IMG/VR virus record: IMGVR_UViG_3300028481_000016
Location: 1 to 33,466 of that record
Length of the DNA stretch: 33,466 bases
Direction: 5' to 3' (one strand)
Origin: a virus
Part shown: positions 1 through 33,466 of the stretch, piece after piece
How the letters are laid out: the number at the start of each line of letters is the position of its first letter
Position numbering within the stretch: the first letter of the stretch is position 1
The notes under the pieces: model-generated
Database searches by the model: none
What the model saw: the letters and a program-made list of their open reading frames with translations, nothing else
What the model was told of the DNA's origin: nothing
Translations under genes and position numbers: made by a program

Positions 1-130
1 AAAGCGGATTTTTACCATACTTTTTTTTCTTTTTCCCGCCAGTTTTTTTAAAAATCTTATGTATTTGTAAACATTTCTTTAAAATGTCAAAAAAAAGTGC
101 TTGACAAGCCTTTTTTTTTGTGTTATCATA
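1..130 (+). repeat. Terminal direct repeat (copy 1), matches 33337-33466
   Basis: 1-126 is identical to 33337-33462. Position 127 is C versus T at 33463, then 3 nt match. Consistent with a circular-assembly overlap. Confidence 0.9.
101..129 (+). promoter_or_regulatory. Sigma-A-type promoter of leader/protein module A
   Basis: TTGACA (101-106), 17-nt spacer, TG-n-TATCAT (124-129). Confidence 0.8.
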
Positions 131-135
131 TTCTC

Positions 136-261
136 ATAATGATTGATTGATTTGTTGGTGCCTCAACCGCTGACAAATTAGAGAAAAAGCTTTTTATAAC
201 GTTTAACTGGTTGAGGCAGTTAGGCGTCATAAAGAGCTTTTTCTTATTAAAAAATCATTAT
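136..261 (+). ncRNA. Candidate structured leader RNA, copy A
   Basis: Outer stem 136-144/253-261. Interleaved stems 159-168/209-218 (10 bp) and 182-197/229-244 (16 bp, one G-U). Same layout as 1221-1346. Confidence 0.6.
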
Positions 262-300
262 AAAAGCAGATTGAAAATTTAATATAGAGAGGTGAAAAAC

Positions 301-633
301 ATGGACGCGAGGGAGTTCTATGCCCAAATAGACAAAGCGGATGATGATCTTTACGAATTAATCAGGAGCTTGTGGAATATATGCAGTGAAGCAGATAATT
401 TAAAGTATATTTTTGAAGAAATAACAAGGGGCGCGGAGAATATAAAAGACGAAGAGAAGAGAGAAAAATTCAGTTCTGTATTGTCGTATTTAAATGACCG
501 GTTACACGAGATTAGCGAACAATGTAATGACATTGGCATAGATTTAGACATGGTGCGCGATTGTGATTTTATTGAGCTAGTAGAAGAAGCCGAATATATT
601 GCAAATGAAGAGGAAAAAAAAACCGCTAACTAA
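301..633 (+). CDS. Acidic, predicted helical hypothetical protein; probable distant paralog of 1377-1658
   Basis: ORF 292-633. RBS GAGGTG with 6-nt spacing favours ATG 301. Confidence 0.75.
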   Translation: MDAREFYAQIDKADDDLYELIRSLWNICSEADNLKYIFEEITRGAENIKDEEKREKFSSVLSYLNDRLHEISEQCNDIGIDLDMVRDCDFIELVEEAEYIANEEEKKTAN

Positions 634-718
634 TGGCAATAGTTAGACGGCAAGGTTTTAAAGGAAAGGGGTTGTACCCCAAACCTGAAAAAAAAATGTC
701 ACATATAAATTTTTTTCA
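614..718 (-). ncRNA. Candidate antisense (counter-transcribed) sRNA
   Basis: Minus-strand TTGACA (748-753), 17-nt spacer, GATAGT. 5' hairpin with A/T-tract arms. Terminator stem 623-650 followed by a T9 tract (614-622 on minus). The start position is estimated. Confidence 0.55.
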
Positions 719-791
719 GGTTTTACTATCTCACTAAAAAAAAAGGTTGTCAAGGGTTTTATAAAAAAAATTTTATGGGGGATAAAAAACC

Positions 792-1142
792 ATGTTAAGG
801 GACATGTTCAAAGATTGGCACAGGAGAATACCAAGATTGATAGGCCTTTATGAGAATAAAACAAAAAAAAAATATGACCTGGATATTTTAGAGGCAATAT
901 ATTTGCACGCATTAAAAAAAGAATATGAGCGGAATAAAAAAAAAGGGCTTCTTTTAAGAAATGGCGCATTTGTTACTACTTTATATGATATGTGCGGGGC
1001 AAGTCGACTTCCGCTATATTATCAAGAAAAAGCGATTCAAGAGTTAGAAAATCGAGGATTTATCGAATACGATCCGCTTTTATTTGATAAATACGATGAA
1101 CTCTCAGATAAATGTGTTATGTTTATGATTAAAATTTTATGA
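792..1142 (+). CDS. Winged-helix DNA-binding protein resembling the N-terminus of phage replication initiators
   Basis: Motif FVTTLYDMCGASRLPLYYQEKAIQELENRGFIEY resembles the wHTH of replisome organizers; GGGGG RBS. Confidence 0.5.
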   Translation: MLRDMFKDWHRRIPRLIGLYENKTKKKYDLDILEAIYLHALKKEYERNKKKGLLLRNGAFVTTLYDMCGASRLPLYYQEKAIQELENRGFIEYDPLLFDKYDELSDKCVMFMIKIL

Positions 1143-1186
1143 GTTTATATTATTAGTAATTTACTAAAAATGTCAAAAAAAAGTGC

Positions 1187-1215
1187 TTGACAAGTATAAA
1201 AAAATGTGTTATTAT
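1187..1215 (+). promoter_or_regulatory. Sigma-A-type promoter of module B
   Basis: TTGACA, 17-nt spacer, TG-n-TATTAT. The upstream AAAATGTCAAAAAAAAGTGCTTGACAAG is shared with module A. Confidence 0.8.
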
Positions 1216-1220
1216 ATAAT

Positions 1221-1346
1221 TATAATGATTGATTGATTTATTTGGCGCTCTACCCGCTAAATAAATTTGAGAAAGTGGTTTTTTTCTCCGTTTGTCGGTA
1301 GAGGGCAAGCGGGCAAAAAGACCACTTTTTTAATTCAATCATTATA
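1221..1346 (+). ncRNA. Candidate structured leader RNA, copy B
   Basis: Outer stem 1221-1232/1335-1346. Interleaved stems 1245-1254/1297-1306 and 1271-1285/1315-1329. The 3' AAAAGCAGATTGAAAATTT is shared with copy A. Confidence 0.6.
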
Positions 1347-1376
1347 AAAGCAGATTGAAAATTTGGGGGAGTTTAT

Positions 1377-12358: not shown

Positions 12359-12904
12359 ATGCAAAATTATTATTATCAGCCTAATATCAACGATACTTAT
12401 TTAAACCGCTTACAACGTCTTAATCAGTTGCAAAATCAATTTAACAGCCAATATCCACCATATAATAACCCTTTACCATTAAACAACCAAATTATATTTG
12501 TACAAGGCGAAACAGGGGCTAAAGCTTATCAAATTCCAAATAATACAACGATTTTATTAATGTCAAGCGAAGGCAATGAATTCTTTATCAAGACAACAGA
12601 TTCAAGCGGATTTCCAACTATAAGAAAATTCACATTTCAAGAACAGCCAAACCAAGAACAACAACCAAAACAATGTTCTTGCGATTGCCAAAACAACAGC
12701 ACTGCACCTTTACCTTTAAAAGACTATGTAACACAGGAAGAATTTAATAACTTCAAAAAGGAGATTTTAAATTTCTATGAATCCAATTTATCAAATGGTA
12801 AGCCAACAATTGGCAACAAAAAATCCAATGATGGCTACAATGATAAAAAACTTGTCAAGCGGAATGACGCCAAAACAAATGGTAATGAATATGATGAAAA
12901 ATAA
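12359..12904 (+). CDS. Conserved gut-phage hypothetical protein (Q/P-rich N-terminus, FVQGETGAKAY motif)
   Basis: First gene of a block recalled from clostridial phages; GAGGAGG RBS. Confidence 0.7.
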   Translation: MQNYYYQPNINDTYLNRLQRLNQLQNQFNSQYPPYNNPLPLNNQIIFVQGETGAKAYQIPNNTTILLMSSEGNEFFIKTTDSSGFPTIRKFTFQEQPNQEQQPKQCSCDCQNNSTAPLPLKDYVTQEEFNNFKKEILNFYESNLSNGKPTIGNKKSNDGYNDKKLVKRNDAKTNGNEYDEK

Positions 12905-13007
12905 TAATAATCCAATGTTATCTCAGCTTGTGAATATGGCTAATAATGGAAACATAAACAACATAGAAAATATGGCTCGTCAATTGTTTCAGCAAAGATG
13001 TACTTGA
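12777..13007 (+). CDS. Small M/N/Q-rich hypothetical protein, probably 3'-truncated
   Basis: MNPIYQMV...NIENMARQLFQQR, then an abrupt CT-stop at the inferred deletion junction. Confidence 0.55.
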   Translation: MNPIYQMVSQQLATKNPMMATMIKNLSSGMTPKQMVMNMMKNNNNPMLSQLVNMANNGNINNIENMARQLFQQRCT

Positions 13008-13691: not shown

Positions 13692-14111
13692 ATGATCGAA
13701 GTTTATACTCAAAATGTAACAGTACCAGCAATGACTGCTATACCTTTTAATAACACGACAATTCAAAAGGGAATAACAGCAATAAAAACTGGAACTGCTA
13801 CTATTCAATTTAATCGTATTGGTGTTTATGTAGTATCTTTTGACGCTTCTGCTTCTTTGGCAGATGGTGGAACAACTGGTGATATTATTTGTCAGCTTTA
13901 TAAAAATGGCTCAAATCAAATTCAAGCGACTACAAGTGCAACATCTACAAGCGAAACAGACATTGTGCATATGTCATTCACAACGCTTGTTCAAGTACCC
14001 CAAAATAATACTTGCAATTGTGCTACTTCTCCGACTACAATACAAATAATGAATATCGGTGTACCTGCTTTATTTGCTCAAGCCGATCTAGTAGTTACTA
14101 AATTATGTTGA
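13692..14111 (+). CDS. Beta-sandwich protein, possibly BclA-C/C1q-like
   Basis: AIPFNNT..IQFNRIGVYVVSF..QLYKNG pattern; AGGAGG RBS. Confidence 0.55.
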   Translation: MIEVYTQNVTVPAMTAIPFNNTTIQKGITAIKTGTATIQFNRIGVYVVSFDASASLADGGTTGDIICQLYKNGSNQIQATTSATSTSETDIVHMSFTTLVQVPQNNTCNCATSPTTIQIMNIGVPALFAQADLVVTKLC

Positions 14112-17853: not shown

Positions 17854-18033
17854 CGCGCGCGCGCGCGTATATATATATATCCTTTTATTTTTATATTTAT
17901 ATATTTAGGGGGCGTTTTGTCTCTCTTAACAAGAGAAGTTTGCCTTTTTCAGGTGGATATTTTACCCCCTTTGGGGTGGAGATTTTACCCCCTTTGGGGT
18001 GGAGATTTTACCCCCCCAAAAAACTGTGGATAA
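17854..18033 (+). promoter_or_regulatory. Replication origin module 1: (CG)n(TA)n tract, 3 x 23-bp iterons, DnaA box
   Basis: CG run 17854-17867 and TA run to 17880. GGTGGAGATTTTACCCCCTTTGG repeats start at 17952, 17975 and 17998. TGTGGATAA at 18025-18033. Confidence 0.85.
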
Positions 18034-18129: not shown

Positions 18130-18894
18130 ATGCGAGAAGAACAAAATTATTTGGTTGTAAAACACAACGATTTGATTCGTAAAGTTCAGGCTCTGTTATC
18201 CCTGACTGTAAACGAGCAAAAAGTTGCTTTGTATTTGGTTTCTTTGATTAATCCTGATGATAAGGATTTTGATGCTGTGCTTGTTTCAATTAGTGCGTTA
18301 TGCGAATTGTTTGGCTTAGAAAAAGAAAAAGGCAACTACAAAAACTTAAAAAAAGCAATAAAAGCTCTAAGTGATAAATCTCATTGGCTTAACGGAGAAC
18401 TCTTCCGCTGGGTTGATACAGCAAAAGTAATACCAAATAGCGGCATGGTTAGAGTAAAATTATCAGAAAGCTTAAAGCCGTATTTGTTGCAACTGAAAGA
18501 AAATTTTACTAAGTACAAGCTCTATAATGTTTTGGTTTTAAAGAGCAAATATTCCATTAGAATGTATGAATTAATAAAAAGCTATTTTTGGGAAGGAACT
18601 TATTCAGTAACAATCCAAGAATTTAAAAAGAGTATTTGTTGTGATGCTTTTAATGAATTCAAAGATTTTAATAAATGGGTTTTAGCCCCTGCGATAAAAG
18701 AAATAAATGAGTTAACAGATATCTATGTAGAGGTAACAAAACTTAAAACCGGCAAATGTATTACAGATTTAAAGTTTGATATACACGAAACAAGCGAAAA
18801 ACTTCCGTTTGACAAGATACTGTCTAAAATATATGAGGTAGATATGAGATTAAAGAAGGCATCATCCACATCTAAAAGAAAAAGAAAGTTTTAG
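18130..18894 (+). CDS. repB: Rep_3 (RepB-type) plasmid replication initiator 1
   Basis: VVKHNDLI, LKPYLLQLKENFTKY, LKSKYSIRMYELIKS and VLAPAIKEINE motifs. Confidence 0.92.
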   Translation: MREEQNYLVVKHNDLIRKVQALLSLTVNEQKVALYLVSLINPDDKDFDAVLVSISALCELFGLEKEKGNYKNLKKAIKALSDKSHWLNGELFRWVDTAKVIPNSGMVRVKLSESLKPYLLQLKENFTKYKLYNVLVLKSKYSIRMYELIKSYFWEGTYSVTIQEFKKSICCDAFNEFKDFNKWVLAPAIKEINELTDIYVEVTKLKTGKCITDLKFDIHETSEKLPFDKILSKIYEVDMRLKKASSTSKRKRKF

Positions 18895-23562: not shown

Positions 23563-23670
23563 TTGAGCCTTTCATGACTAAAACCACTAGATTCTTGGGA
23601 ACTCCTTTCTATTGAAAAGATATTTACCAAGCTATCCCGATAGTTCCCACCGTTCTTTTATTCGTCTACG
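23563..23670 (-). ncRNA. omegaRNA scaffold / IS200-IS605 right end of tnpB copy 1
   Basis: GAACGGTGGGAACTATCGGGATAGCTTGG...GAATCTAGTGGTTTTAGTCATGAAAGGCTCAA ends in TCAA; predicted guide 23543-23562. Confidence 0.75.
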
Positions 23671-24769
23671 CCACTTCTAACATCCTCAATCCTTCATTAA
23701 GAATATTTATGGCTGCATTTACATCTCTGTCATGATGCGTATGACAACAAGGACATTTCCATTCTCTAATACTAAGATTTTTCACATCCTTATTAACATA
23801 CCCACAACAATTACAAGTCTGTGAACTAGCATAGAATTTATCTACTTTAACAACTTGTTTTCCATACCAATTTGCTTTGTATTCTAATTGTCTTACAAAT
23901 TCTGACCATGACACATCTGCGATTGACTGTGCGAGTTTATGATTCTTAATTATATTCTTTACTTGTAAATCTTCTAGACAGATAACATCATTATTTCTGA
24001 TAATTTCAGTAGATAATTTTTGTAAAAAATCTTTTCTCTGATTAGCAATATGTTCTTGAAGTCTTGCAACTTTGATCCTTGCTTTATTACGATTTGAACC
24101 ACCTTTTGTTTTTCGAGATAGTTGTCTTTGCAACTTTGCGAGTTTATCTAAAGACTTCTTCAAATACTTTGGATTTGAAATCATTTCACCGTCAGATGTA
24201 ATACAAAATTCTTTTATTCCTAAATCAATTCCAACTACATTTTCAGTTTTCTCAAATGGTTTGATGTCCACATCTGTACAACAAATAGATACAAAATATT
24301 TTCCACTTGGTTTTTGTGATACAGTTGCATTAAGAATCCTACCTTTTGGTATTAACTTGTTTTTCGTCTTTACCATTCCAAGTTTAGGCAATTTAATATG
24401 CTTGTCACAATACTGAATATTTCCATTTACACATTTTGACTTATATGAAAATCTATGTGTTTTCTTGGATTTGAATTTAGGATAGCCAGTGTGTTCTTTA
24501 AAGAACTTTTGATAAGCATAATCCAAATCTTTAAGCGAAGATTGAAGAGCAGTAGAATCAACTTCTTTTAACCATTCCAACTCTGATTTGAGTTTTTTCA
24601 TGTCATTTGCACACTGTACATATGAAAATGTTTCTTTATTCTGTTCATACGTTTCAATTCGTTTTGCAAGATATTTATTATACACAAATCGACAGCATCC
24701 AAACGTTTTTGCAATTATTTCTTTTTGCTTTTTATTTGGATATATACGATACTTATAAGCTTTTTCCAC
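23666..24769 (-). CDS. tnpB: TnpB RNA-guided endonuclease (IS200/IS605 family), copy 1
   Basis: [12 protein letters not shown]; GIDLG, LEDL and [10 protein letters not shown] RuvC motifs intact; Zn ribbon; GTG start follows GAGGTG. Confidence 0.95.
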
Positions 24770-24809
24770 CAACTTCACCTCACTTTCTTTTTTGATAAGA
24801 AAATAAAAA

Positions 24810-25082
24810 TTAATTTGGAAAAACATATTTCATTGCTCTTGCACTATCATTTATCCCTTGTGTTGTTGGATCATTTATTGTATTTAAAACATTAATTACA
24901 ATAACTCCTAATATATAAGGGTTACATAGTGCATCTTTTAAAAGTTTAAATACTTTATCCCAACCTGTTAAATCTTTAAAATTTAATCCGTAATAAGTTA
25001 ATAATGGTGTAAAAACAGCTAAAAATACTTGCCACCACCAAATCGGATTATTTATTCTGACCGTCCAATTTATATCCATCAT
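24810..25082 (-). CDS. Holin, phiLC3 family
   Basis: [13 protein letters not shown] and [16 protein letters not shown] motifs. Confidence 0.92.
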
Positions 25083-28336: not shown

Positions 28337-28445
28337 TTGAACTTCTCATGACTAAAGCCACGAGATTCTTGGGAACTCTTTTCTACTAAAAAGATATTTA
28401 CCAAGCTATCTCGGCAGTTCCTGCCGTTATTGTTTATATTTACTA
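28337..28445 (-). ncRNA. omegaRNA scaffold / right end of tnpB copy 2
   Basis: Homologous to 23563-23670 and ends GAGAAGTTCAA; predicted guide 28317-28336. Confidence 0.75.
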
Positions 28446-29546
28446 TGCTGCATTTAATATTCTAAGTCCTTCATCAAGAATATTCTTTGCAGCATTGATA
28501 TCTCTATCATGATGTGTATTACAGTGAGGACAATACCATTCTCTTACTGAAAGATTTTTAGTATCTTTATTTACATATCCACATACGTTACAAATCTGAC
28601 TACTTGCATAGAATTTATCTATTTTAACAACCTTTTTCCCATACCAATTTGCTTTGTATTGAAGTTGTCTTACAAATTTTGACCAAGATACGTCTGCAAT
28701 AGATTGTGCAAGTTTATGATTTTTAATCATATTTTTTATTCGCAAATCTTCCATACAAACTACATCATTATTTCTGATAATTTCAGTAGATAGTTTCTGT
28801 AAAAAATCTTTCCTTTGATTTACAATATGTTCTTGAAGCCTCGCAACTTTAATTCTTGCTTTATTACGATTTGAACTACCTTTTGATTTTCGAGATAATT
28901 CTTTTTGTAATTTGACAAGTTTCTTTAGAGACTTCTTTAAATAATGTGGATTTGATATTATATCGCCATTGCTTGTAATACAAAATTCCTTTATACCTAA
29001 ATCAATACCAATACTATTATCTGTTTTGTCTAATGACTGAATATCAACATCAGTGCAACACAGTGATATATAATATTTTCCACTTGGCTCTTGTGATATT
29101 GTTGCGTTAAGTATTCTTCCTTGTGGTGTTAACTTGTTTTTCGTTTTAACCATTCCAACTTTAGGTATCTTTATATACTTCCAACAATACTGAATATTTC
29201 CATTTACACATTTTGACTTATATGAAAATCTATGCGTTTTCTTTGATTTGAATTTTGGATAACCAGAATGTTCTTTAAAGAATTTTTGATATGCTTTATC
29301 CAAATCTCTAAGTGATGATTGAAGAGCTGTAGAATCAACTTCTTTGAGCCATTCCAGTTCTGATTTGAGCTGTTTCATATCATTGCACATTGAAACATAT
29401 GAGAATGTTGTTTGACTTTGCTTATACATTTTGATTCTTTTAGCAAGATATTGATTGTATACAAAACGGCAACATCCAAATGTTTTAGACATTATTTCTT
29501 TCTGTTTCTTATTTGGATATATTCTGTATTTATAAGCCTTTTCCAC
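28443..29546 (-). CDS. tnpB: TnpB RNA-guided endonuclease, copy 2
   Basis: GIDLG, MEDL and [10 protein letters not shown] intact; close paralog of copy 1; its RBS overlaps the rep2 stop. Confidence 0.95.
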
Positions 29547-29552
29547 ATTTTT

Positions 29553-30608
29553 TCACCTCTTCAAAATCTCCTTAGGCAATTTATTTATATCGTCGTCTTC
29601 ATCATCATCTTCGCCAGTCTTATCAATAATTTTTCTTAAAGCGTCAAAATCCCATTGTTTATACTCGAAAGCAGGGAGACCAGGTTTTTTTCTAGGAGTA
29701 TTATAGGGTTTATTAACCCTTTCTTTTAAAACCTTCTTTTTAGAGTAATTGTATTTATATTGTGTGGTAGTGGTAGTTTCATTTAAATTCTCTATTTGTT
29801 TTTGTGGTTGCGTTATATTTTCTGTTTTGTTGGTTGTATCTATAATATTTTTTTGCTGTTTTGTTAGTTTTTTAGGGGATTCGGACAAATCAAATAGGAT
29901 TGATGTTACAGTACGACCTGTTTTGATTGTTTTATATTTGAACTTATAGTTTATTTTTTTTGCAAGTTCCTTTTGTGCTTTTTTAAGAATAAGATCATTA
30001 AAATGTCTAAAGTCATCATATGTTTCTTCTTTGTCACACCGTAAAACTTTTTTCAGATTTTCTACTTTCACTTCAAATGTATTTCTAAAACGATTGAGAG
30101 CTAAAAAAAGGAATAACATGTAATCACATTGTCGTTTTAAAGATATTGAATAGTTTAATTCATATGGGATATAGCCTTTTTTTTGTACGTTAAATATATA
30201 TTCCATTGCTTTTGCACTACATATCATTTTAATTTGTTGAACCCCAGAAGTATTTTCAGGATGGTCTGTTGCCTGGAGAGAGGCTGCCTCCATTAAGTTG
30301 AGCCAAACTTTAACACATTTACCGTTTATTTTATCTTCAATCTGAACTTTATTATTCATAAGTTGGTCTAGTGCAGGTTCGAGTTTTTCTTTTCGGATTC
30401 TCTTTACCCCAAATATTTTTTCAAGCAGACTCTTAGGAAAAACCACACATTTTGTTTCAGGATTACCCATATTTATTTTAGACAAATAGACATCAAAAAT
30501 TTTTAAAGCATATGATGACAAATTAGAACACCATAAAGCAAATAATGGTCTACTTTTGTTTATAATTGCCATTATATCACTACCAACCTTTTTGTTTTTT
30601 TCGATCAT
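29553..30608 (-). CDS. repB: Rep_3 plasmid replication initiator 2 with a low-complexity C-terminal extension
   Basis: KSRPLFALWCSNL..KIFDVYLSKIN, FRHFNDLILKKAQKEL and KTGRTVTSILF motifs; start may be the second Met. Confidence 0.88.
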   Translation of the reverse strand: MIEKNKKVGSDIMAIINKSRPLFALWCSNLSSYALKIFDVYLSKINMGNPETKCVVFPKSLLEKIFGVKRIRKEKLEPALDQLMNNKVQIEDKINGKCVKVWLNLMEAASLQATDHPENTSGVQQIKMICSAKAMEYIFNVQKKGYIPYELNYSISLKRQCDYMLFLFLALNRFRNTFEVKVENLKKVLRCDKEETYDDFRHFNDLILKKAQKELAKKINYKFKYKTIKTGRTVTSILFDLSESPKKLTKQQKNIIDTTNKTENITQPQKQIENLNETTTTTQYKYNYSKKKVLKERVNKPYNTPRKKPGLPAFEYKQWDFDALRKIIDKTGEDDDEDDDINKLPKEILKR

Positions 30609-30752: not shown

Positions 30753-31010
30753 TAAAGAAATACAATGTGGTTTTTAGTAAAGAAATACAATGTGGTTTTT
30801 AAAATATGAGTGGATTTTTTTATGACATATAGTGGATTTTTTTATGACATATAGTGGATTTTTTTATGACATATAGTGGATTTTTTTATGACATATTTTC
30901 TCGAAAGTCCGCTTAGTGTGGGGGCTTTCAGCCCCCCTTAATTCTTTTAAGAAAACCTTAATTATATATAAACGCGCGCGCGCGCGCGCGTACGTAAATA
31001 TATATATATA
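30753..31010. promoter_or_regulatory. Replication origin module 2: 2 x 25-bp repeats, 4 x 22-bp iterons, (CG)n/(TA)n tract
   Basis: TAAAGAAATACAATGTGGTTTTTA at 30753 and 30778. AGTGGATTTTTTTATGACATAT at 30809, 30831, 30853 and 30875. CG run 30973-30990. Confidence 0.88.
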
Positions 31011-31142
31011 CGTATATTAATTAATATATATATAGAGAAATGTAGTATTTAATTCACATAAAAACAAAATTTATATTGACTTTTTATTTTTCTTGTGTTA
31101 TATTTCATATGCAAAAAAAATAAAATAAAAGGAGTGGTAAAT

Positions 31143-31666: not shown

Positions 31667-31918
31667 GTGAGGAAATAGGGGGACCTAAGTGAGGAAATAG
31701 GGGGACCTATCTCTCTTTAATCCTCCTTGTTAAGGACAGTTTCAGGCTCCTATAATCAAGATATATAATCAAGATATATAAATATATATATAAACGCGCG
31801 CGCGCGTACGTAAATATATATATAATATACGTATATAATATATATAGATAGATGTAATGTTTAATTTACATATTAAAATAATATTTGTATTGACTTTTAA
31901 TTTTTCTTGTGTTATAGT
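31667..31918. promoter_or_regulatory. Third origin-like module with no rep gene
   Basis: 2 x 22-bp GTGAGGAAATAGGGGGACCTA (31667, 31689); 2 x 13-bp TATAATCAAGATA (31751, 31764); CG run 31795-31806; promoter TTGACT-17-TATAGT (31890-31918). Confidence 0.65.
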
Positions 31919-33336: not shown

Positions 33337-33466
33337 AAAGCGGATTTTTACCATACTTTTTTTTCTTTTTCCCGCCAGTTTTTTTAAAAATCTTATGTAT
33401 TTGTAAACATTTCTTTAAAATGTCAAAAAAAAGTGCTTGACAAGCCTTTTTTTTTGTGTTATTATA
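33337..33466 (+). repeat. Terminal direct repeat (copy 2)
   Basis: See 1-130. Confidence 0.9.

Follow-up and report, generated by a model that had tools for sequence, protein, structure and literature searches.

The DNA analyzed here comprises positions 1 to 33,466 of IMG/VR virus record IMGVR_UViG_3300028481_000016 (33,466 nucleotides, hereafter the window). Near its beginning it carries two promoter-plus-leader cassettes, A and B, in each of which a structured leader RNA lies between a promoter and the ribosome-binding site (RBS) of a gene. These leaders represent a new family of promoter-proximal non-coding leader RNAs in a rumen phage-plasmid lineage. An earlier note on this DNA had proposed a functional RNA at this place; the strings quoted in it are all present where it put them, and its outer closing stem is the helix that we call P1. 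Leader RNA copy A occupies positions 136-280 (+) and copy B positions 1222-1364 (+). The cassettes align with 83% mean column identity and have in common an identical promoter flank, the 5' ATAATGATTGATTGATTT, and an identical 28-nt 3' block (253-280 = 1337-1364), with a diverged interior between the two ends. The first gene behind copy A (301-633, +; Shine-Dalgarno (SD) sequence at ~288-296) encodes a 110-aa acidic helical protein of the MDAREFYAQIDK family, and the first gene behind copy B (1377-1658, +) encodes a 93-aa protein of no known family. The two genes had been taken for paralogs, but their products are not detectably related (BLASTP E 0.67).

Both promoters are close to the consensus TTGACA-17-TGnTATNAT, with 11/12 matches each and a TG ahead of the -10. 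Promoter A (86-129, +) has the -35 TTGACA at 101-106 within a TGTCAA-N9-TTGACA inverted repeat, a 17-nt spacer, the TG at 121-122, and the -10 TATCAT at 124-129. Promoter B (1171-1215, +) has the -35 TTGACA at 1187-1192, the -10 TATTAT at 1210-1215 with its TG, and a back-to-back minus-strand -35 at 1176-1171. The block shared by the cassettes starts seven bases past each -10, and the predicted +1 is A136 in copy A and A1222 in copy B. The -35 and -10 lie at a constant distance ahead of all 25 distinct copies of the leader that were compared, and P1 therefore starts at the predicted +1 in every one. The earlier note had set a start downstream of the structure against its own proposal; the start predicted in 25/25 copies is instead the first base of P1, which is where a near-consensus sigma-A-type promoter should place it, and it stays a prediction only.

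Several other features of the promoter region are worth recording. Positions -1 to +5 (135-140 and 1221-1226) read (C/T)ATAAT, a near-perfect -10-like hexamer at the first transcribed bases, and the P1 5' strand that holds it has an identity of 0.96-1.0 over the copies. The hexamer may act, as one does at lambda PR', in sigma-dependent promoter-proximal pausing; such a role would also give a reason for the invariance of P1. The TGTCAA-N9-TTGACA inverted repeat spans the -35 of both promoters (86-106 and 1171-1192); its minus strand offers a -35 with a possible -10 (1176 to 1149), and the repeat is either a divergent back-to-back promoter or an operator. In some relatives, its left arm is swapped for a GACCC-AATA-GGGTC terminator-like hairpin adjoining the -35. 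No countertranscript promoter was found inside the leader element.

A nested three-way junction and its covariation

The predicted fold of the leader is a fully nested three-way junction of P1 (9-11 bp), P2 (13 bp), and P3 (28 bp), where P1 is formed by the first 9-11 bases paired with AATCATTAT and P3 mostly carries one internal mismatch, 10-11 bp under its 7-nt loop. In copy A, P1 pairs 136-144 with 253-261, P2 pairs 148-160 with 168-180 around the loop CCUCAAC (161-167), and P3 pairs 181-209 with 217-245, including an A.C mismatch (198/228), around the loop GUUGAGG (210-216); the junction strand J3/1 follows at 246-252 and a conserved tail at 262-280. In copy B, the corresponding elements are P1 at 1222-1232/1335-1345, P2 at 1235-1247/1255-1267 with the loop CUCUACC (1248-1254), and P3 at 1268-1296/1304-1332 with a C.C mismatch (1286/1314), the loop GGUAGAG (1297-1303), and a U-tract at 1327-1332, followed by the tail at 1346-1364. 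P2 and P3 abut with a gap of 0-2 nt, P3 exceeds P2 by 15 bp in every copy, and their loops lie 49 nt apart on the same strand. Pairing outside the nested fold is limited to a 6-7-bp kissing contact between the apical loops of P2 and P3. The SD sequence is unpaired, 25-30 nt past P1.

The segment order a-b-a'-b' described in the earlier note is recovered by this fold in a different arrangement. Its segments a and a', and likewise b and b', are complementary in both cassettes as it described, although the copy B a/a' pairing comprises 7 perfect bp and not 10, the reverse complement of GCGCTCTACC being one base off from GGTAGAGGGC. What the note missed is P2 (148-180 and 1235-1267); its b/b' pairing is the lower half of P3, which continues into an upper stem of 10-11 bp.

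The stability of the fold is far outside what shuffled sequences yield. The minimum free energy (MFE) is -51.5 kcal/mol for copy A and -57.0 kcal/mol for copy B, versus -23.9 and -26.5 kcal/mol for shuffles (z -9.4 and -9.3), and 0/200 shuffles equal it. For both copies, the centroid is the MFE structure, and the nested fold makes up 19-23% of the ensemble. The minus strand folds far less well (z -5.5 and -4.8). When folded singly, each of the 25 distinct copies gives the same junction.

Relatives were gathered by an exact-word scan, by protein-guided scans, and from contigs with 74-98% identical tail-sheath genes, and a covariance model was built from five copies. The model finds 32 copies (25 distinct) on 14 related contigs at 84-162 bits, with copy A at 162 bits and copy B at 136 bits; there is no third copy in the window. 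The family is shallow (sheath identity of at least 74%), and many shared pairs reflect common descent, so that what counts as independent evidence is how many distinct loop versions and double changes there are. In the alignment of the 25 distinct copies, 95.8% of cells are standard pairs, and double-sided changes occur at 29 of 57 pairs overall (7/13 in P2 and 15/28 in P3). No column shuffle out of 500 reaches any of the covariation measures, and sliding the partners by 1-3 columns lowers the pairing to 40-54%. The proposal of a ~125-nt structured RNA kept by compensatory change thus holds, and the covariation reaches well beyond the two sequences from which it was first read.

Conservation is unevenly distributed over the structure. 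P1 is almost invariant, with one copy (the minus-strand copy of contig L282) showing a compensatory change from A-U to G-C. The junction strands are the least conserved, at an identity of 0.56 for J1/2 and 0.35-0.46 for J3/1. Conserved G.U pairs occur at columns 68/110 (24/25 copies) and 79/99 (22/25 copies), and these pairs together with the strand asymmetry of folding point to a plus-strand RNA. The competing pairing of CCCGCT with AGCGGG put forward in the earlier note does not covary: AGCGGG is invariant within P3, its partner in the copy B of relative L002 is CCCACC, and no such pairing exists in A-type copies. Comparison of the distinct copies revealed no reading frame conserved through the leader RNA.

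A 19-nt unpaired conserved tail lies between the P1 3' strand and the RBS. It ends in CAGATTGAAAATTT in the window (262-280 and 1346-1364) and reads GATTGACAATTG in other contigs, it is conserved even without a downstream RBS, and it resembles the 5'-end GATTGATTGATTT as a direct repeat rather than as a complement. No pairing partner or function was found for this tail.

The leader seems to be restricted to this phage lineage. A scan of IMG/VR and JGI metagenomes with short AT-rich patterns mostly picked up chance matches, and among the matches listed the covariance model confirmed only L001, L002, L069, and L272. The model found no copy in L130-L134, phages with 72% and 69% identical sheaths (in L130 also with filters off), and none was found in the nearest GTDB match, a Clostridia metagenome-assembled genome (MAG) with a 49% identical sheath, or in 151 genomes sampled from its order.

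Complementary loops and what they may do

The loops of P2 and P3 are exact complements of each other in copy A (CCUCAAC/GUUGAGG) and in copy B (CUCUACC/GGUAGAG). Eleven loop versions occur in the contigs (CCUCAAC, CCGCAAC, CUCUACC, CCACACC, CCGUACC, AUAGCGC, ACACGAC, CCACAC, AAGCCC, CCCGUCC, and AGGCAC), and each is matched by an exact complement in the other loop. A twelfth comes from the contigs of four gut runs, bovine and goat, in which 1249 T>C is invariably accompanied by 1302 A>G, the two changes falling at the mutually paired loop positions 2 and 6. Cognate loops form 6-7 contiguous Watson-Crick bp in 12/12 versions, while non-cognate combinations form at most 4 bp in 128/132 cases. 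In genomes with two copies, the loop pair is never common to both, and cross-pairing reaches at most 3 Watson-Crick bp. Elsewhere in the 33-kb genome, no loop complement lies in a sensible place, the only one being a chance GTTGAGG at 14107.

These loops are the fastest-evolving part of the leader RNA. In A-type copies, they are the least conserved structured part, at an identity of 0.53 versus 0.75-0.86 for the stems and 0.96 for P1. Copy pairs that differ at 5-13% of other positions differ at 9/13 or 12/14 loop positions (binomial P ~1e-9). For instance, the minus-strand copy of L126 and the plus-strand copy of L282 differ at 7/131 non-loop positions but at 9/13 loop positions (P ~2e-9). With an almost constant scaffold that carries twelve or more orthogonal loop pairs found in nature, the family amounts to a parts list for RNA engineering.

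The reading that we tentatively favor, as a good possibility that falls short of probable, is that of a kissing-loop-controlled terminator leader, in which the loops would be the specificity determinants and competition in trans would lead to dose-dependent attenuation of the operon downstream of each promoter. It starts from the geometry of the junction. Because P2 and P3 abut and differ by 15 bp, the two loops cannot meet in one molecule with P3 fully zipped. By our arithmetic, P3 as a stiff A-form helix of 28 bp extends over ~80 Å and P2 over ~36 Å. A kiss together with stacked P2 and n bp of P3 requires (20+n) x 2.8 Å <= (28-n) x ~6 Å, which gives n <= ~12, and this is the length of upper P3 above its usual mismatch. 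This limit leads to two exclusive states, one kissed with lower P3 open and one unkissed with P3 zipped to its base. The two-state switch of the earlier note therefore fares better in altered form: its equilibrium version fails, and what we infer instead is that the intramolecular kiss and the lower 17 bp of P3 exclude each other. Since lower P3 (~-21.5 kcal/mol) is stronger than the kiss (~-9 kcal/mol), the kissed state can only be kinetic and co-transcriptional.

The base of P3 is terminator-like, a G/C block and then a U-tract. The P3 hairpin is 50-55 nt long, at -25 to -34 kcal/mol, an A-tract precedes it, and in 18/25 copies the 8 nt behind it include 6-7 U. During transcription, the nascent P2 loop would kiss the upper P3 hairpin (~10-11 bp, as far as the mostly conserved mismatch) before the 3' strand of lower P3 is made, and the kiss would keep the A/U-rich lower 17 bp of P3 open, acting as a built-in antiterminator. 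Where the kiss is absent or displaced, P3 would zip to its 3' U-tract and intrinsic termination would follow. Once finished, a leader RNA of matching specificity would expose both loops, be it terminated or read through, and could compete in trans for nascent loops. An occupied nascent loop would favor termination, amounting to negative feedback in proportion to template dose, of a copy-number or immunity-like kind. The loop sequence would then serve as the address that keeps the two cassettes of a genome, and co-resident relatives, independent of each other. Such a model would account for the exact complementarity and for the fast paired diversification, which is also a feature of immunity and incompatibility determinants; it would likewise account for why the cassettes have differing addresses, why P2 and P3 abut, and where the mismatch lies.

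Several points weigh against the kissing-loop-controlled terminator. P3 was not called in a scan for consensus terminators, and its 28-bp stem exceeds what is typical of intrinsic terminators. In the stable fold, the U-tract pairs with the A-tract; some of these pairs covary, and the U-tract may serve pairing only. The mismatch that separates upper from lower P3 is lacking in 3/25 copies. The steric argument is back-of-envelope arithmetic and not a 3D model, and full P3 beats the kiss by ~12 kcal/mol at equilibrium, so the model leans on kinetics. The transcription start, a 3' end at the U-tract, and termination itself are predictions from sequence. The model also leaves the near-invariance of P1 and the 19-nt tail unexplained.

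That near-invariance is what would be expected of parts recognized by a conserved host factor, and it fits a purely cis-acting leader, in which any contact between the loops would be an intramolecular tertiary or kinetic one with no partner in trans. We regard this as somewhat unlikely. Candidate roles for such a leader are a 5' stabilizer, an RNase III site (the 28-bp helix), or a put/EAR-like processive antitermination RNA that alters polymerase as it leaves the promoter. The RNA is paired from its 5' end at +1, it stands at the head of long operons in both orientations and ahead of unrelated genes, and two adjacent stem-loops behind two promoters recall the putL/putR of HK022. However, pairing alone leaves the much faster change of the loops than of the stems unexplained, and a stable intramolecular kiss would be sterically implausible in the folded junction. 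The J3/1 identity of 0.35-0.46 argues against a ligand or protein pocket at the junction.

Should the loops instead meet between molecules, the leader could be a self-assembling RNA, a reading that we hold to be distinctly unlikely. P2 and P3 would stack into a rod of ~42 bp with complementary loops at its ends, and head-to-tail kissing would give rings or filaments in which P1 and the mRNA project from each unit and the loop address keeps the assemblies of the two cassettes apart. The P2-P3 gap of 0-2 nt favors coaxial stacking, both loops are exposed in the stable fold and complementary over their full 6-7 nt, helix lengths are conserved, loop pairs are orthogonal within genomes, and the arrangement is thermodynamically natural. 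Fully paired kissing complexes are known from ColE1 RNA I/II and TAR/TAR*. Natural short and phage-associated RNAs also form RNA-only homo-oligomers via kissing loops (PMC12286853; bioRxiv 10.64898/2026.07.01.735769). Nevertheless, the element forms the 5' end of an mRNA and is not a free-standing RNA gene, and the conservation of helix lengths may just reflect the shallow divergence of the family. The assembly also has no apparent function; scaffolding, mRNA protection or localization, and concentration sensing could be candidates.

Two further readings can be set aside more readily. The long-stem H-type pseudoknot of the earlier note, or a thermodynamic two-state switch with CCCGCT/AGCGGG as its competing pairing, is highly improbable. 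The segment order a-b-a'-b' is real and both pairings are kept by compensatory change, but the MFE fold is fully nested: b:b' makes up the lower portion of a 28-bp hairpin capped by a', and a caps a second hairpin. The centroid equals the MFE structure, so there is no competing equilibrium state, and seven-nt loops paired over their full length leave no linkers for an H-type knot. A DNA-level element bounded by ATAATGATT / AATCATTAT (an operator pair or looping site, a cruciform, or a miniature inverted-repeat mobile element) is barely credible: its flanks do form 9-11-bp terminal inverted repeats, the module does occur at several places in both orientations, and P1 does overlap the initially transcribed region with its -10-like (T/C)ATAAT, but the mobile-element, operator, and cruciform readings are rejected for the strand asymmetry of the folding z and for the conserved G.U pairs, which would be A.C mismatches on the opposite strand, while conservation passes beyond the inverted repeats into promoter and tail and the twelve exact loop-pair variants would each need a matching protein.

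More familiar classes of RNA were also considered and rejected. A hammerhead or other ribozyme is not supported, as the junction is not conserved and there is no Rfam match. A riboswitch is rejected on the least conserved junction strands (J1/2 0.56, J3/1 0.35), on the unpaired SD sequence well past P1, and likewise on the lack of an Rfam match. As for a translated-leader attenuator, the reading frame that begins with the AUG at +4 is 2-3 codons long in most copies and of variable length in others, and there are stops in all frames.

Should the kissing-loop-controlled terminator prove right, the leader would be an RNA control element with its specificity in two co-evolving loops on one strand, and phage-plasmid immunity or dosage control by RNA, not repressor proteins, would become testable in Gram-positive-type hosts. 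Should self-assembly prove right, the leader would exemplify RNA-only, sequence-addressed self-recognition gauging the copy number of the element itself, with addresses diversified for orthogonality. Either way, a 125-nt RNA would suffice for a test, of a loop-loop kiss gating a terminator in the one case and of small mRNA leaders multimerizing in cells in the other. The minimal outcome is an uncatalogued, strongly covarying RNA family at operon heads of an abundant rumen phage-plasmid lineage.

The phage-plasmid setting of the leaders

The record is a terminally redundant, probably circular virus genome of 33.3 kb, with a 130-nt direct repeat (1-130 and 33337-33466) that is 99% identical, and the upstream flank of promoter A runs on across the terminal-repeat junction. 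Its genes include those of a contractile-tail phage, namely head-tail adaptors, a tail terminator, a sheath, an Erf recombinase, and a Terminase_3 large subunit with ordinary TerS/TerL. There are two divergent Rep_3 initiator genes (18130-18894, + and 29553-30608, -), along with 22-bp iterons, four in tandem, and three (CG)n(TA)n tracts; together, the iteron and tract regions lie at 30809-30896, 17854-17907, 30973-31034, and 31797-31850. More than one plasmid-type origin module is thus carried by the phage. Rep_3 genes and a DUF6290/ParE pair are also present in relatives. Given the sheath and tail genes, Rep_3 initiators, and iterons of the window and the Rep_3 and DUF6290/ParE genes of its relatives, the element is a rumen myovirus-type phage-plasmid.

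The sequence is present in bovine and goat gut metagenomes, and no RNA run is listed among the sequencing runs that match it. Among cultured phages, Clostridioides difficile myophages have the nearest sheaths (~50% identity). Lysis genes of the LysM/Amidase_3 type are in keeping with a bacterial host, which we predict to be a Gram-positive-type bacterium. A sheath homologue with 71% identity, P0075, is labeled by one source as coming from a Methanobrevibacter MAG. A binning error is more likely here than an archaeal host, because the lineage has bacterial-type promoters, SD sequences, and LysM/Amidase_3 lysis genes.

Two side observations concern genes elsewhere in the lineage. A paralogous gene pair in the window (23666-24826 and 28443-29546, -) has 79-80% DNA identity across 300 and 152 nt. 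OrfB_IS605/Cas12f-like TNB (TnpB-type) genes lie elsewhere in relatives (L154 12781-13899 and L158 4042-5145), and their differing positions point to a variable insertion in the lineage.

As in the window, A-type copies in relatives are followed by the same acidic 110-aa helical family, and B-type copies by a family of 77-94-aa proteins. The 110-aa protein behind A-type leaders matches no Pfam or PHROG family, and its Atlas model is a generic long helical hairpin resembling chemoreceptor signaling bundles, which indicates no function. L069 apparently carries the acidic protein as a tandem duplication (12678-13001 and the next ORF). The leader also occurs in other positions: in L126 and L286 it lies ahead of an antitoxin-toxin-Erf operon, L126, L153, L282, and L286 have further leader modules 150-380 nt ahead of the next gene, and in L126, L282, and L286 one copy is on the strand opposite the sheath gene. 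From these varied genes and orientations, the leader with its promoter is a portable module rather than something tied to a single gene. Genes of the Q-like or Nun-like kind were not recognized.

Several relatives have a second conserved module after the leader, consisting of a hairpin, an A-run, and then CTTGTCAAG, which on the opposite strand is a -35. It occurs at L126 430-560 (-), in L153 after 2526, and at L282 4637-4795 and 940-1090 (-), and it resembles the region of the window before ORF 792 (614-791). The leader and this second module may work together.

Comparison with known systems

Searches of catalogues did not place the leader in a described family. In agreement with the earlier note, which did not recognize one, cmscan with Rfam 15 gave 0 matches in the whole window at gathering thresholds, families such as C4 antisense RNA and IsrK included, and at E <=10 on positions 1-1500 it gave only miRNA-type hairpin noise far below threshold. 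No match was obtained by blastn of positions 60-1400 against INPHARED phages and PLSDB plasmids. Comparison with known systems is one of likeness in logic, chemistry, and shape.

In logic, the leader is closest to the same-strand RNA regulators of temperate elements, namely the CI RNA of P4, the C4 RNA of P1/P7, and Gifsy-1 IsrK. The targets of the P1/P7 C4 RNA lie within the c4-icd-ant transcript. In P4, pairing of the CI RNA with two sites on its own transcript, seqA and seqC, leads to termination, and the terminated form of IsrK acts on its own read-through form (PMC4825925). As in these systems, a single transcript carries both effector and target of the leader and comes from one promoter that looks constitutive, the carrier being a temperate phage or phage-plasmid. 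Complementarity is kept by paired changes and would set specificity, here in the form of twelve loop pairs. The outcome in these systems is premature termination or read-through activation, and an analogous outcome in the leader is predicted only. Unlike in these systems, the partners in the leader are both apical loops in one compact three-way junction, the target is not the RBS, there is no evident RNase P-type processing signal, and the predicted host is of Gram-positive type.

In chemistry, the leader is closest to the plasmid copy-control RNAs with their kissing loops of 6-7 nt. GC-rich loops of this length are shared with pT181 repC, pIP501/pAMbeta1, ColE1 RNA I/RNA II with Rop, and R1 CopA/CopT. 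In these plasmid systems, the loops are the first contact and set specificity, such that loop changes create new specificities (incompatibility), and in the pT181 class the read-out is an intrinsic terminator in the leader. However, complementarity in plasmid antisense systems comes free, as the two RNAs are made from opposite strands of one DNA, whereas the loops of the present leader are on the same strand and have to co-evolve by two changes.

In shape, the leader is closest to the pRNA of phi29, a three-way junction of ~120 nt with paired 5'/3' ends and two complementary loops that pair between molecules, the structure of which is kept among relatives while the sequence is free to vary (PMC3753930, PMC5340915). 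The leader is likewise a three-way junction closed by a 5'/3' helix and bears two mutually complementary loops. The pRNA loops, in contrast to those of the leader, pair over 4 nt, and pRNA is a free RNA of small terminal-protein podoviruses that binds the connector and the ATPase. The present RNA is the mRNA leader of a contractile-tail phage with Terminase_3, TerS/TerL, and Rep_3 genes, and it has no match to pRNA in Rfam.

Two lambdoid units share parts of the cassette. The lambda PR'-6S RNA-tR' unit has a strong promoter, a terminator-like hairpin within ~110 nt, and a -10-like element in the first transcribed bases, all of which recur here. The put sites of HK022, putL and putR, are two copies behind two promoters with two adjacent stem-loops each, again as here; put RNAs are not known to have loop-loop complementarity. 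Neither the lambdoid PR' unit nor the put RNAs account for the hypervariable complementary loops of the leader. Because homology tests fail and the defining contexts differ, the leader belongs to none of these known systems.

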